Sequence record: PQ400057.1 | Strand: one strand, 5' to 3' | DNA length: 32,592 nucleotides | Source: a phage | Part shown: one piece after another, positions 28,950 to 32,592 of the stretch | Numbering within the stretch: the first letter of the stretch is position 1 | How the letters are laid out: each line of letters starts with the position of its first letter | The notes under the pieces: generated by a model | Told to the model about the DNA's origin: nothing | Databases searched by the model: none | What the model saw: only the letters and a program-made list of their open reading frames with translations | Position numbers and translations under genes: made by a program

Positions 28950-28987
28950 AAACGCAGAAAAGCCCACCCTAAGGTGAGCCAGTGTGT

Positions 28988-30007
28988 TTACATCTTCTCT
29001 TGAGGGTTGTCCTCGGTGCCACGGAAGCAGGTGAAGGAGGGGTGTCTGAGACTCCCATCGTTAGTTACCTCCATAAATCCAATCTGGCAAGCCCAGCCAT
29101 TATAGTAGTCCTCGCCATGTTCTTTAACGTTAGCTGTAAATTCATCCATTAAGGCGCGAGAGATGTTATTGGCATCGACAAGACGACCAGTCTCAAGAAG
29201 CACCTTGAATCCAATTACCTTACCTTCGTTAGCAAGTCCTTCTGTTCCCCAGTTTACACCATTAATGATTCCGTCAGCTTCCTCAAGAGGCTTAAGTTTC
29301 CACCAGCCGGACTTCTTACCGCGCTTGTAGATGCACATCGGGTCTTTCACAATGAGACCCTCATGTCCTTCTTCACGCTTCTTCTCGTACAGTTGCTGTA
29401 GTTCTACCATATCGTAGACCTCGTAAGACTCAGCCGCTTGCCATTCGATTTCAGGGAAGTATTCCTGTAGCAGAGGCAGCATGTTCTTAACGTGTTCCTG
29501 CATGAGCAACGTCATGACATCACAGTCTTCCCCAGACTCCACGATGTGCAGAGGGAGGATAGCGTACAGTCGGACACTCAGATGTTTGGTATCCAACGCG
29601 AACTCAACCTTGGACCCCTTGAGTGGTGGTACACCGCCAACGTCGAACTCAAAGTTATTCTTGTTGAGCCACTTGGTACGCAGTAGGCCGGACCCTGTGT
29701 TAAAGTCTACGCCCTTGACCATTAGTTCCCCATCGAGCATAAAGCCATCCTTGTAGAAACAACGGTCATCGTTAAGCAGACGCTTCCAGCGAACATCAAA
29801 CCCGTTTAAGTGCTCCAGTGCCGGAATCGTTTTAGATACACGAGAGAGCCAGCAACTGTTAGCTGTATTGTCTACGCAGATGTTACCGCGCACACCATCG
29901 TACTTAATGTCAGCGATAAGATACCCAGCGTTATCCAGAGCTTTCTTAATGGCAGACTCTACGAAAGATACTGCCTTGTATGGTGAAGTCTTAAAGTTAA
30001 TAATCAT
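28988..30007 (-). CDS. 1.3: ATP-dependent DNA ligase
   Basis: The 339-aa ORF MIINFKTSPYKAVSFVESAIKKALDNAGYLIADIKYDGVRG... has the ligase KxDG adenylation motif and matches T7 gp1.3. GAGG is 8 nt upstream of the ATG. Confidence 0.95.
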   Translation of the reverse strand: MIINFKTSPYKAVSFVESAIKKALDNAGYLIADIKYDGVRGNICVDNTANSCWLSRVSKTIPALEHLNGFDVRWKRLLNDDRCFYKDGFMLDGELMVKGVDFNTGSGLLRTKWLNKNNFEFDVGGVPPLKGSKVEFALDTKHLSVRLYAILPLHIVESGEDCDVMTLLMQEHVKNMLPLLQEYFPEIEWQAAESYEVYDMVELQQLYEKKREEGHEGLIVKDPMCIYKRGKKSGWWKLKPLEEADGIINGVNWGTEGLANEGKVIGFKVLLETGRLVDANNISRALMDEFTANVKEHGEDYYNGWACQIGFMEVTNDGSLRHPSFTCFRGTEDNPQEKM

Positions 30008-30408
30008 ATGTATTTCCTCAGTTTGCCATTTCGTATGTAGTGTATTGTTGAAGCAGCCACATTAAGTGCCCTTGCTAGCTCCCTGCCGGAGCGAGGGTCC
30101 GTCCGTATCATATCGACCTGCTCATTAGTTATCTTTCTAGCACCACGGCCTTTGATAGCCATGTCTCTAAGGTTGTCTGCCTGTGTGCCCTTGGTTAGAT
30201 GTGCAGGATTTACACACCACCTATTGTCACAGGAGTGTAGGACTATATCGCTCTTATTCAACTCACCGTTGAACAGAATGTACGAAGCCCTATGGGCATA
30301 TATAGGCTTACCATGCAGGCGGAACCGTCCGTAACCATTGGGCTGGATACTACCAATCCAACGGGACAAGAAGAGACACCAAAAGGTAAACCCAAGGGTC
30401 AACCCCAA
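30004..30408 (-). CDS. HNH (His-Me finger, HNH_3-like) endonuclease ORF; no canonical start, open frame runs into the terminal repeat, possibly 5'-truncated or a pseudogene
   Basis: The translation ...NGYGRFRLHGKPIYAHRASYILFNGELNKSDIVLHSCDNRWCVNPAHLTKGTQADNLRDMAIKG contains the GYGRF...AHR...HxCDN..C.NP.HL core. The first in-frame ATG is downstream of the catalytic motif; the track start is a TTG inside the repeat with no SD. The stop overlaps the ligase ATG (ATGA). Confidence 0.55.
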   Translation of the reverse strand: MGLTLGFTFWCLFLSRWIGSIQPNGYGRFRLHGKPIYAHRASYILFNGELNKSDIVLHSCDNRWCVNPAHLTKGTQADNLRDMAIKGRGARKITNEQVDMIRTDPRSGRELARALNVAASTIHYIRNGKLRKYI

Positions 30409-30507
30409 CCCTTAGGGACCCTCAAAGTCAACTGAAAGTTGACTCAAGGTGATTGGCTGGACTTTAGGGACCCCTATGGGGGAACTTTAGGTCCGTAAAC
30501 TGTGAGA
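30361..30507. repeat. terminal repeat homolog (single copy in this circular-style window); concatemer junction at about 30507/30508
   Basis: The reverse complement starts TCTCACAGTTTACGGACCTAAAGTTCCCCCATAGGGG...GTCAACTTTCAGTTGAC...GGGTTGGGGTTGACCCTTGGGTTT..., colinear with the 160-bp T7 terminal repeat (TCTCACAGTGTACGGACCTAAAG...), and is preceded by ...AAAATCTGAGTGACTA as at the T7 right end. The inner boundary is approximate. Confidence 0.7.
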
Positions 30508-30747
30508 TAGTCACTCAGATTTTTATGGTATATTTTAAAGGACCCTCTAGGAACTCCCTATGCCCTCTCTAAGACCCTCTTTAGGTTCCACTGATAGGAG
30601 GGCCTATCTTTAGGTATAGACCTTACGGATAGACCATTAGAGGCTCTTTATGGGTATACCTTAAGACTTGACTCTATAGGGATGAAGTGGTGTGATGCAA
30701 TCATACCGCTGAATCCCTCGGTGAGCCATCAGTCGGTCAGGAAGACC

Positions 30748-30897
30748 CTAATCGCTACAAGTGAGTAGAGAGCAAACTGTAGACTCCAGTGAACTGAGGT
30801 CTCCAGTAAGAGATGCGTACCCAAGGGCAGCACAAAGTACCACAAGAAATCGGTAGGTGACTCTATGCCGCAACAAGGTCAACAATAAGCGGAACAT
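30748..30897 (-). CDS. 19.5: gene 19.5 protein (49 aa)
   Basis: The ORF MFRLLLTLLRHRVTYRFLVVLCAALGYASLTGDLSSLESTVCSLLTCSD, with AAAGGAGGG upstream, lies downstream of phiOR and matches T7 gp19.5. It is not on the ORF track. Confidence 0.7.
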   Translation of the reverse strand: MFRLLLTLLRHRVTYRFLVVLCAALGYASLTGDLSSLESTVCSLLTCSD

Positions 30898-31051
30898 GAG
30901 TCTCCCTCCTTTATGTTGGTCTTTAAGTTAAGGTGATATTAATACAATATAATCACCATTCTTGGAGGTCACTTTAGGTACACCATTATGCATACTTTAT
31001 GCACTCTATAAGTATTCATTCAGTATCTATATAGTAACCTTTCGTCCCTCC

Positions 31052-31074
31052 TCTCCCTATAGTGAGTCGTATTA
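31052..31074 (-). promoter_or_regulatory. phage RNAP promoter phiOR (class III consensus) near the genome right end
   Basis: The reverse complement is TAATACGACTCACTATAGGGAGA, between gene 19 and gene 19.5. Confidence 0.8.
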
Positions 31075-31155
31075 ATTTATCGTGTCTTTTCAGTAACTTA
31101 AAGAACTGACCATCCGTGGTCTATAGTGCATCCCTATGCAGTCTCAGTGAATAAA

Positions 31156-32592
31156 TCACCACTCAATGAAAGACGTACCGTAACCCTCATCGTCCTCAGA
31201 GTATACATCAACTCCTCCCACAGACATCTCAATGATGTGCGTAGCAGCGACCGTAGGGCGCATCATGTGCTCCTCAAGGAAGTCAGCAAGCACTTCACCT
31301 TCTACCTTAACGGAATCCAACTGCATGGACTCGCGGAGATACTCAATGCCTAACGCAAGGGCATCCAATCGGTCATCATGTGCCAGAGCGCCTTTCTCAC
31401 GAGTGATACGGGTCATCTGGTAGAACAGTGAATACTTAACGTCATGCTTACCGTCTACGTCACGAGCGGACTGGTAGTCGGCCCTAATGACCTCATCACG
31501 AATGACAAGGCGGTGAGTCTGCATGACTGGCTCAAGGGTATCACAAATACGCATCTCCTTCATACCACGAGCACGAATCTCCTCCATTGCACAGTTGTGG
31601 TGTTTAAGAAGGATAGGACTGAACACCTTACCAAACATGCCGTCACCGAAGTTACTCTCATAGACGACCGTCTGGACTCCCCATTGCTTAGCTTTCCTAG
31701 CGAGCAACTCAAGGGTCTTATCGGAGTAACCATCGCGGAAACCTCCAGCTTCCATTAGGTAGATGTAACCGTTCAGGGTGAACAGCACAGCGTAACCTGT
31801 TTCGTCCTTACCGCGACCACTAGGGTCAATGACCAGAATCTTCTGTTGGTACTGACCAGAGTTGTTGGAGCAATCATGGTAAGTATGCAGGTCATCACCC
31901 TTAAGGCCAACGTTAGGAAGGTCCTCAATGATGTTCTGACGGTTCGGAAGCCATTGGTAATGCATTGGAGCCTTCTCTAAGTCTAAGGCCGCTACGATAG
32001 CGTCACGGAGCCTCAGAGGGTACTTCTCGGCATCACTCAGGTTCGGGTTAAGCATGAACTGTAGTGTGAAGCCAGCCTTACCGTATTCCAACTCACGCTC
32101 ACGGAGGTCCTCTCGGTCGAAGCGCACAGGGTCCGTAGGAGTCCCGGCGAGGGCCTCAGGGTTCTCATCGTACTCAGCACGTAGCATAGGGGCAAGTCGC
32201 TGTGCGTAATAGAGGTTCTCTTCGCGAGTCCTTGGGTACAGAGCAGGCCAGATGATAGTGGTATACCCACGGTTATCCTCAAGTTCCTTATAGAGAGTCA
32301 TCTCGGTCTGAGGTGTGCCAAGGTAGATAACACGAGAGGAAGGCAGCGGTTTAAGCAACGCAGCGAACTCCTGAACTAGAGTCCATAGCTTCTCACGGGC
32401 ACCCATAGTCGCACTGTTAGACGGAATCTCAACATCATCCGCAATGATAATGTCAGCACGGCTACCAGTTAACTGACCAGTGATACCTACCGATTTTACA
32501 CTAGGAGAGTGGTCAGGGTTAGCTGGACCTACATCAAAGCTAATTACAGAATCACGCTGTCCGGGTCTTGGCTTCAATTCAGCAAGGAAAGG
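31156..32592 (-). CDS. 19: terminase large subunit (DNA maturase B), C-terminal part; 5' portion is at window start (1..323)
   Basis: The ORF is open to the window edge and ends ...[17 protein letters not shown], matching the T7 gp19 C-terminus. Upstream codons at the edge ([14 protein letters not shown]) continue the window-start fragment (...[10 protein letters not shown]), with one nucleotide missing across the join. Confidence 0.95.

Follow-up and report, generated by a model that had tools for sequence, protein, structure and literature searches.

The defined ends and short direct terminal repeat (TR) of T7-type phage genomes have been textbook matter since the T7 genome was sequenced. 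By the mechanism established for intact phages of this type, replication produces head-to-tail concatemers in which neighboring genomes share one TR. T7 RNA polymerase transcribes into the resulting junction from the promoter phiOR, pauses at a class II site, ATCTGTT, immediately beyond the TR, and helps to bring in the terminase (gp18/gp19). Cleavage by the terminase at both TR boundaries is accompanied by duplication of the TR, leaving one copy at each end of the virion DNA. T7-type concatemers contain a single TR per junction, and assemblies either collapse the TR or place it in the middle of a contig (PMC10438801). The T7 elements with reported roles include the pacB and pacC sites (PMC9860248). 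The class II pause site has been described as a 7-base motif just beyond the TR (bioRxiv 10.1101/2021.01.11.426313; bioRxiv 10.64898/2026.02.12.705533), the start of maturation reportedly requires that the polymerase pause at the junction (PMC3276506), and a hairpin intermediate is reported to exist in T7 (PMC4281155).

We analyzed a 32,592-nt phage sequence (record PQ400057.1; the whole stretch is hereafter called the window), the minus strand of which corresponds to the conventional strand of T7. Judging from sequence comparison, the interval 30361-30760 is very probably part of the concatemer-junction region of a Teseptimavirus (T7-like) genome, lying on the minus strand, in which the distal side of the TR is non-native. 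The minus-strand order is gene 19, phiOR, gene 19.5, right-end unique DNA, cut-site block and TR, with CCTAAAG motifs and an imperfect inverted repeat located in the unique DNA ahead of the cut-site block. The phiOR homologue (31052-31074, minus strand) is a perfect match to the T7 class III promoter consensus, and its start site lies 550 bp upstream of the TR start, the same distance as in T7. Gene 19.5 (30748-30897, minus strand), which translates to 49 aa and corresponds to the annotated gene 19.5 in the matching segments of T7 and phiA1122, extends across the upper limit of the interval.

Over 30363-31150, the window shares 91-95% identity with the right ends of T7, phiA1122 and ESh3, and the match stops at the end of those records, which is the end of the TR. 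Identity to the junction region of T7, phiA1122 and Bas104 is likewise 91-95%, with an identical cut-site block, and the TR used as a query matched 289 phage records. This homology agrees with the frame proposed in a first-pass annotation of the window, namely, a T7-type phage with its left end at 30507. The two ends of the window adjoin inside gene 19 with one base missing between them, so the window represents a permuted sequence of approximately 32.6 kb that carries the TR once. Assemblies of such phages normally take this form, with one TR copy placed internally in a permuted sequence. After rotation, the window is colinear with Cedecea phage Yanou, apart from a break in colinearity between the TR and the ligase gene, and is approximately 32.6 kb long vs approximately 39.3 kb for the corresponding genome. 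The junction element is of a known kind, and all that it confirms is the T7-type character of the phage, with its defined ends and short direct repeat.

The TR is present as a single collapsed copy of the T7-type direct repeat, 144 nt in length (30364-30507, minus strand), that runs from TCTCACAG to CTTCTTGTCCC and lacks only the final 1-2 nt of a repeat of about 145 bp. The label "terminal repeat" denotes homology to the annotated TRs of T7, phiA1122, Yanou and Pila, the window itself holding one copy only; 30364-30507 aligns over its whole length with the TRs of T7 (160 bp), phiA1122 (148 bp), Yanou (159 bp), Pila and Bas104. The left-end cut site lies within a conserved block, AATATACCATAAAAATCTGAGTGACTA/TCTCACAG (30500-30534, minus strand), that is identical to T7. 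Conservation of the junction sequence with T7, as previously noted, is in fact complete: in two alignments, the minus-strand sequence ...AAAATCTGAGTGACTA/TCTCACAG..., with the boundary at 30508/30507, is identical to the right-end/TR boundary of T7. The 19-mer AATCTGAGTGACTATCTCA at the cut site shows no variation among the 16 genomes compared, one of which is a Pectobacterium Unyawovirus. The mature left end is predicted from these alignments to be position 30507. The TR also contains a mini-palindrome, CCCC-TAT-GGGGG (30471-30482), which is paired in the TR fold; the C-run, the ATA and the GG are kept in 16 of the 16 aligned genomes, with some variation in the length of the C-run.

The heptamer CCTAAAG was originally reported to occur four times on the minus strand in this region, and four exact copies are indeed found between 30462 and 30614, all aligning with copies in T7. 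Two of these are inside the TR (30462-30468 and 30485-30491) and two are in the right-end unique flank (30579-30585 and 30608-30614); a fifth copy (30972-30978) is located beyond the interval 30361-30760. The copy at 30608-30614 belongs to a 14-mer, TATACCTAAAGATA (30605-30618), that is invariant in 16 of 16 relatives, and the counterpart of the third TR heptamer of T7 reads CCTTGAG here (30443-30449); Bas104 has CCCAAAG. The whole window contains 15 copies, 13 of them on the minus strand, compared to 3.9 +/- 1.9 in shuffled sequences, and the four copies in the junction far exceed the approximately 0.05 expected by chance per 400 bp. To our knowledge, no role has been assigned to these heptamers.

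The inverted repeat GTCAACT-GAA-AGTTGAC, first described at 30427-30443, is present and is one pair longer than stated. A repeat search identified a perfect 8+3+8 inverted repeat inside the TR (30426-30444) that reads AGTCAACT-TTC-AGTTGACT on the minus strand and, as single-stranded DNA, folds with energies of -7.1/-6.3 kcal/mol (z about -3). Base-shuffled windows contain 2.7 +/- 1.8 perfect inverted repeats with 8-bp arms, and the actual window contains exactly one, the TR hairpin. Because such a repeat is not rare by chance, the weight of the hairpin rests on its conservation in relatives. Across 20 TRs, four of the eight stem pairs show changes on both sides, and the resulting covariation score was reached by none of 500 shuffles, with slid controls scoring near zero. 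The loop is either TTC or GAA and is flipped in several relatives. Several natural genomes have a mismatch at stem pair 2, EG1-like TRs possess a different stem in the same place, and no obvious counterpart was found in the TRs of the Unyawovirus and of another member of the Studiervirinae. Taken across the aligned TRs, the compensatory changes and the orientation-free loop indicate that the hairpin is a selected palindrome, suggesting that it is recognised in the form of a symmetric duplex or a cruciform. It is possibly a candidate part of the small-terminase site, a role that we infer from this pattern.

A second inverted repeat in the junction, unmentioned in the first-pass annotation, was detected by repeat search at 30678-30718. 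This repeat is imperfect (19-nt arms, 79% complementary, 3-nt spacer), is centered at 30698, 191 bp from the TR start, is homologous to T7 position about 39,587 and is almost invariant among the Teseptimavirus relatives. The predicted folding energy is -11.1 kcal/mol for the plus strand (z -4.3) and -7.2 kcal/mol for the minus strand. According to Chung, Nardone and Hinkle (1990), the T7 hairpin intermediate reportedly maps to an inverted repeat approximately 190 bp to the left of the TR, and we take 30678-30718 to be the homologue of that site.

The heptamers and the TR hairpin had been interpreted as packaging and concatemer-processing signals, but neither the present data nor the literature found show such a role. 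We consider it rather doubtful that these motifs themselves are terminase recognition or processing signals. Their clustering at the junction far above chance is what such signals would lead one to expect, as is the location of one heptamer within a 14-mer invariant in 16 genomes; for the hairpin, compensatory changes maintain the stem in both T7-like and T3-like TRs, and EG1-like TRs have a different stem there. However, we found no experimental assignment of this kind, the elements named in the open literature being pacB, pacC, the class II pause site and the hairpin intermediate (PMC9860248, PMC3276506, PMC4281155). Furthermore, the heptamers differ among close relatives (CCTTGAG here, CCCAAAG in Bas104) and are over-represented on the coding strand genome-wide, and the hairpin has a mismatched stem pair 2 in several natural genomes and no obvious equivalent in the Unyawovirus and the other Studiervirinae TR. 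It is still less probable, indeed highly improbable, that the hairpin works as RNA, as a pause, termination or processing element in transcripts reading through from phiOR. Transcription from phiOR runs towards the junction (PMC3276506), the stem is conserved with covariation, and a terminator-like stem follows just downstream in the TR (30391-30416, minus strand), but both loop orientations, TTC and GAA, occur in close relatives, as expected of a DNA palindrome and not of a strand-specific RNA, no U-run follows the 8-bp stem, and no Rfam family matches 30200-31200. The notion that the junction motifs are chance features of a non-coding stretch of mixed AT/GC composition deserves practically no credence: although chance alone could yield one perfect 8-bp inverted repeat in 32 kb, the heptamer cluster exceeds expectation about 80-fold, the motifs are kept in position and sequence across genera, and the stem covaries. 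The conservation data thus refute a chance origin. The compensatory evolution of the TR hairpin, read as a selected palindrome, makes it a cheap, testable candidate for a part of the T7/T3 packaging site, which is itself poorly mapped.

The far side of the TR is broken. At a non-native join (30362-30365), the minus strand reads ...GTCCC/GTTGGATTGG..., vs ...GTCCCT/ATCTGTT... in relatives. The jump occurs at 30363/30364, 1-2 bases short of the distal end of the TR, which is the last base of the mature chromosome in relatives, and involves a microhomology of 1 nt. In every relative examined that has DNA beyond the TR, GTCCCT/ATCTGTT is followed by a CCTAAAG array. The pause site is gone from the window, AACAGAT (ATCTGTT on the minus strand) being absent from the plus strand; the left-hand array of CCTAAAG-type repeats that would follow the TR is absent as well, with HNH coding sequence in its place and no array found by Tandem Repeats Finder within 30200-31200. 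This coding sequence is a 5'-truncated HNH homing endonuclease gene (30004-30363, minus strand; Pfam HNH_3 match), 89% identical to the full-length HNH of Bas104, that lacks approximately 18 codons, the start codon and the first CxxC among them; the open reading frame as called, to 30408, reads on into the TR. The first intact gene past the join encodes a DNA ligase, the gene 1.3 homologue (28988-30007, minus strand; Pfam DNA_ligase_A_M and DNA_ligase_C). The missing DNA, approximately 6.5-6.8 kb, comprises the pause site, the left repeat array, phiOL (a T7-type promoter at the left end), the early promoters A1-A3 used by E. coli RNA polymerase, and the block of genes from 0.3 to 1.2, to which the phage RNA polymerase gene belongs.

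Two parts of the first-pass annotation therefore require revision. The junction was said to carry the expected signals, but it is incomplete, with neither ATCTGTT nor the left array and with the TR adjoining a truncated HNH gene. The window was also taken to be a packaged phage-type genome, but as written it is not self-sufficient: it contains no ORF of the size of an RNA polymerase and no RNA polymerase gene, despite 12 T7-type promoter sites on the minus strand (6 perfect, 1 near-perfect and 5 weaker). From the TR start, the distance to the first T7-type promoter is 1.56 kb; no sigma-70-like site was detected within 29500-31150.

Exact 36-mer and 23-mer patterns spanning the join had no match in IMG/VR, JGI metagenome contigs or GTDB genomes, and a strain-specific 23-mer from the HNH gene had none in IMG/VR or metagenomes. 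A megablast search with 29900-30800 found no match in PLSDB plasmids or complete E. coli genomes. Look-ups of the exact ligase and capsid protein sequences gave no record either, and none of these searches revealed the same phage with its left end intact. An internal repeat was considered as the cause of the join and rejected, given that the window contains no second copy of the HNH fragment at the DNA or protein level and the microhomology is 1 nt. An IMG/VR contig of 32,448 bp, considered as a parallel short genome, was likewise set aside, with its left end and early genes found to be normal.

Because the break between the TR and the HNH gene lies at a physical end of the DNA, our interpretation is that the terminus of a linear molecule or contig was connected to an unrelated internal point. 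Judged from this position, the join probably arose in assembly, circularisation or library construction, and not in the phage. A plain contig end does not readily account for it, however, because a de Bruijn assembler would normally continue from the TR into the left unique DNA and would not stop at the TR end, so this scenario would hold only if long reads had been assembled, the sequence had been trimmed by hand or a molecule was chimeric. Moreover, there is a second public record without the early region, that of Enterobacter phage E-3, which could mean that such deletions are real and recurrent.

We regard it as unlikely that the join is a genuine in vivo deletion in which a mature or terminase-cut right end, at the TR boundary, would have been joined to an internal break in the HNH gene. 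The product would be a 32.7-kb genome without an RNA polymerase gene, whose replication and packaging would depend on a wild-type helper or on a host that supplies T7 RNA polymerase. All replication, structural and terminase genes indeed seem undamaged and are colinear with those of relatives; the left cut site is kept, as are the TR, phiOR and the inverted repeat at -191, and the break is at a site where real DNA ends exist in infected cells; the E-3 RefSeq genome (NC_028795.1, 31.5 kb) also has neither the early region nor the RNA polymerase, with other breakpoints. Against a deletion, no promoter of either type is present within 1.5 kb of the new left end, and under the established T7 entry model, uptake beyond about the first 850 bp depends on transcription. 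The flanking HNH gene is simply broken, the join sequence occurs in no public collection searched, and the ATCTGTT pause site, reported to be necessary for the start of maturation (PMC3276506), is gone. A broader proposal, which we consider quite improbable as a whole, holds jointly that T7-like phages recurrently yield packaged, helper-dependent genomes without RNA polymerase, cheaters of which the window and E-3 would be two cases, the window's genome persisting as such in phage populations, and that, separately, the TR palindrome may be an unrecognised part of the terminase site. If the deletion were real, defective, helper-dependent T7-like genomes would exist in nature. The practical value of the observation is as a warning: permuted records with one TR and no RNA polymerase can mislead analyses of genome size, completeness and taxonomy, and the RNA polymerase, a hallmark of the family, is also missing from at least one RefSeq exemplar, E-3.

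Compared with T7 (V01146/NC_001604; TR at 1-160 and 39778-39937), the TR of the window is about 85-91% identical, depending on the aligned extent of the query, and about 15 bp shorter, as it is in phiA1122 and Pila. The order of the heptamers, the CCCC/GGGG mini-palindrome, the place of the hairpin and the cut-site block are shared with T7, as are the inverted repeat 191 bp upstream, phiOR 550 bp upstream, and gene 19.5. The differences within the junction are the loop-closing pair of the hairpin (T-A in the window, C-G in T7) and one degenerate heptamer, whereas on the distal side T7 has ATCTGTT, the left repeat array, phiOL and A1-A3 where the window has the truncated HNH gene. The stem GTCAACT-TTC-AGTTGAC is common to the window, Bas104 (PQ850595), Yanou (ON568193), IME390/PHB20 and the IMG/VR genome UViG_3300045988_001011, and the overall genome identity of these same-hairpin Teseptimavirus relatives to the window is about 92-93%. 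Bas104 and Yanou resemble the window in having an HNH gene upstream of the ligase gene. Unlike the window, the same-hairpin relatives retain TR/ATCTGTT, the repeat array and a full early region with RNA polymerase, and the join is absent from all of them. The class II pause signal (CJ, HATCTGTT) immediately follows the TR in every intact relative examined and is absent from the relevant strand of the window, and the left CCTAAAG array, found in T7, Bas104, E-3 and the IMG/VR relatives, is not present in the window.

The Enterobacter phage E-3 genome (NC_028795.1, 31,522 bp, Teetrevirus) is, like the window, permuted and reverse-oriented, with one internal TR and with no early genes or RNA polymerase, and its TR region is joined to a truncated gene beside the ligase region. 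Beyond the TR, and unlike the window, it retains the pause site and the CCTAAAG array together with a T3-type promoter. The breakpoints also differ: E-3 is interrupted within the ligase gene, the window at the very end of the TR and within the HNH gene.

The window is a reverse-oriented T7-like (Teseptimavirus) genome: its minus strand corresponds to the conventional T7 strand, and on it ORFs sized as T7 gp4, 5, 6, 8, 9, 10, 11, 12, 14, 15, 16, and 17 lie in succession. The best public matches, Cedecea phage Yanou and the Basel phages Bas102 and Bas104, are ~92–93% identical over most of the length, and T7 itself is ~90% identical. Gene 19, encoding the terminase large subunit, is split over the window ends (1–326 and 31156–32592); translation across them, with NIIDLL at the window start, yields the T7 protein (...NIIDLL/PFLAELK...), with exactly 1 base absent between the two halves. 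Because the ends abut within gene 19, the window is essentially a whole circularly permuted sequence of ~32,593 bp and no slice of longer DNA, and the one-base gap is a defect or trim where the permuted sequence was opened.

Followed down the minus strand in order of falling coordinates, the right-end region begins at the lower end of gene 19 (31156) and continues through a perfect T7 promoter homologous to phiOR (31074–31052), which lies 550 bp before the terminal repeat (TR), the same spacing as in T7, to gene 19.5 (30897–30748). An imperfect inverted repeat follows at 30718–30678, with 19-nt arms that are 79% complementary, a 3-nt spacer, and a centre 191 bp before the TR start; absent from the first-pass annotation, it is almost invariant among Teseptimavirus relatives and corresponds to T7 position ~39,587. 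Between this repeat and the cut site, the right-unique flank carries two minus-strand copies of the heptamer CCTAAAG (30579 and 30608), one of them inside the 14-mer TATACCTAAAGATA (30618–30605, minus strand), which is invariant in 16 of 16 relatives including an Unyawovirus. The invariant cut-site block then separates the flank from the TR: as had been claimed, the junction AAAATCTGAGTGACTA/TCTCACAG, whose boundary falls at 30508/30507, matches the right-unique/TR boundary of T7 exactly, and the 19-mer spanning it is unchanged in all 16 aligned genomes, a Pectobacterium Unyawovirus among them. The TR itself (30507–30364, minus strand) contains two further heptamers, a conserved mini-palindrome, CCCC-TAT-GGGGG (30471–30482), and a hairpin. 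The length of the C-run in the mini-palindrome ranges over 5–11 in relatives, and both this element and the 14-mer are more conserved than the TR hairpin. T7-type phages carry one TR per concatemer junction, which is duplicated in maturation, and short-read assemblies often collapse the TR and place it mid-contig (PMC10438801). Since the window holds only one copy, “terminal repeat” is here a statement of homology to the annotated TRs of T7, phiA1122, Yanou, and Pila.

On its other side, part of the junction is missing. Wherever a relative has DNA past the TR (the T7 left end, Bas104, PHB20, 04922B, EFA-2, CICC 80001, six IMG/VR contigs, and Enterobacter phage E-3), the TR end ...GTCCCT is followed directly by ATCTGTT, the class II T7 RNA polymerase pause site, and then by an array of CCTAAAG-type repeats, without exception. 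The window instead reads ...CTTCTTGTCCC/GTTGGATTGGTAGTATCC... at 30364/30363, and ATCTGTT has no occurrence on the minus strand of the whole window. From 30363 downwards, the sequence has 89% protein identity to the HNH endonuclease that Bas104 encodes upstream of its ligase gene; the window gene begins ~18 codons in, without a start codon and without the first CxxC. A 134-aa ORF at 30004–30408, with a TTG start at 30408, is a fusion whose first ~15 codons are TR sequence in frame with the truncated HNH gene, and it therefore warrants no gene annotation. Features of a T7-type junction found here comprise the cut-site block, TR homology, heptamers in the TR and right flank, phiOR, and the upstream inverted repeat; a search for the class II pause site and for the left repeat array found neither.

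Colinearity with Yanou passes from the TR (Yanou 1–132) straight to the ligase gene (7355), beyond which it is unbroken as far as the right end, so that the DNA missing from the window amounts to ~6.5 kb by comparison with Bas104 or 6.8 kb by comparison with Yanou; restoring it gives ~39.3 kb, a normal genome size in the genus. Lost are the pause site, the left repeat array, phiOL, the host-type promoters, and genes 0.3 to 1.2 (ocr, kinase, RNA polymerase, 1.1, and 1.2); the RNA polymerase gene of its own that is the hallmark of the Autographiviridae is thus lacking from the window genome. T7-type promoter sites are retained, all on the minus strand (six perfect matches to the class III consensus, one near-perfect, and five weaker), and with no polymerase gene the genome therefore depends on a polymerase encoded elsewhere. 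The first two of these promoters past the TR, at 28950 and 28833, lie ~1.56 and 1.67 kb from its start; 29500–31150 contains no sigma-70-like site.

The break at 30363/30364 falls 1–2 nt from the mature chromosome's final base pair in T7, Yanou, and phiA1122. For a deletion endpoint placed at random, the chance of landing on the TR end is about 1e-4 to 3e-3, and one of the two joined partners was therefore almost certainly a physical DNA end. Microhomology between the TR and HNH partners is 1 nt, there is no second copy of the HNH fragment within the window, and the junction sequence was unmatched in every collection searched, including IMG/VR, JGI metagenome contigs, and GTDB genomes.

We consider the join probably artificial. 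It could have been created when a linear record or contig that stops at the genome's right end was handled as circular, or through a chimeric library molecule or misjoin that joined some internal fragment onto the abundant genome end. An artefact is favored by the loss of the essential pause site, by the lack of a promoter close to the new left end, by a flanking HNH gene that is merely broken, and by the 1-base defect in gene 19 where the window ends meet. That every other gene is intact would also suit a real end-joining deletion, which would have left a defective, helper-dependent genome, and so would the existence of a RefSeq genome, NC_028795.1 (Enterobacter phage E-3), that is likewise permuted, T7-like, and devoid of early genes and RNA polymerase; we regard such a deletion as less likely.

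Published descriptions of the packaging signal of T7-type phages name pacB, to which gp18 binds, and pacC, which gp19 cuts (PMC9860248); polymerase paused at the class II site is thought to interact with gp18/gp19 and so start maturation (PMC3276506), and during T7 infection a DNA intermediate with a hairpin has been observed (PMC4281155). The first-pass annotation took the heptamers and the TR hairpin for the expected packaging and concatemer-processing signals: the region is indeed a T7-type junction, but that these particular elements are the signals is unproven. The observation is thus confirmed, its interpretation partly supported, and the finding ordinary. CCTAAAG does recur four times near the junction on the minus strand (30462, 30485, 30579, and 30608), a fifth copy lying at 30972, and is enriched in the window as a whole (15 copies versus 3.9 ± 1.9 in shuffles), with a strong 13-to-2 bias towards the minus (coding) strand; eight of the 13 fall beyond the junction region, among the densely packed genes of the genome body. 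We know of no demonstrated role for these heptamers.

The inverted repeat GTCAACT-GAA-AGTTGAC reported at 30427–30443 is present and extends to a perfect 8+3+8 structure at 30426–30444. The T7 hairpin intermediate was reportedly mapped by Chung, Nardone and Hinkle in 1990 to an inverted repeat ~190 bp to the left of the TR; we take this to equal 30678–30718 here, not the hairpin within the TR. As single-stranded DNA the latter has modest stability (-7.1/-6.3 kcal/mol, z about -3), and it is the only perfect inverted repeat with 8-bp arms in the window, where shuffles give 2.7 ± 1.8; judged as sequence, such a repeat alone is not rare, and the significance of the hairpin rests on its relatives. 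Among 20 distinct TRs of T7-like and T3-like phages, four of the eight pairs are altered on both sides. At the loop-closing pair, 15 TRs have C-G and 5, the window included, have T-A; pair 3 is T-A in T3-like and C-G in T7-like TRs; and pair 2 is mostly T-A and C-G in one, with both single-step intermediates, C.A and T.G, occurring naturally. A doubly compensated stem, GCCAACC/GGTTGGC, occurs in one genome, L038 (with L004, L016, L029, and L037, among the relatives listed under loop or stem variants). The covariation score was reached by 0 of 500 shuffles, and slid-partner controls were near zero, although the sequences are related and independent compensatory events few, about three or four. 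These compensatory changes indicate that the TR palindrome is under selection. In its place, EG1-like TRs (L021, L026, and L034) have an unrelated 6-bp stem, CACTCC-TTT-GGAGTG. Among close relatives, the 3-nt loop is TTC or its exact complement GAA, the latter in several T7-like TRs, and this freedom of orientation speaks for action as symmetric duplex or cruciform DNA and against action as RNA; we infer that the palindrome may take part in small-terminase binding.

What this analysis adds is the recognition of the sequence as a permuted, one-TR version without the early region, probably an artefact, together with comparative evidence for selection on a small TR palindrome and a RefSeq exemplar with a matching problem. 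That exemplar, E-3 (L024/L039 in our comparison), has 31,522 bp, is labelled a “complete genome” in RefSeq, and represents Teetrevirus E3. Like the window, it is permuted and reverse-oriented, has one internal TR copy, and lacks the RNA polymerase and early genes; unlike the window, its TR is followed by ATCTGTT, a CCTAAAG array, a T3-type promoter (L024 3416–3435), and then the ligase gene. Compared with T7 ligase, that gene appears to be short of approximately 60 codons at its start, the motif I lysine among them. The phage described here is ~92% identical to described ones, and its junction is a fresh instance of an already known type of element.
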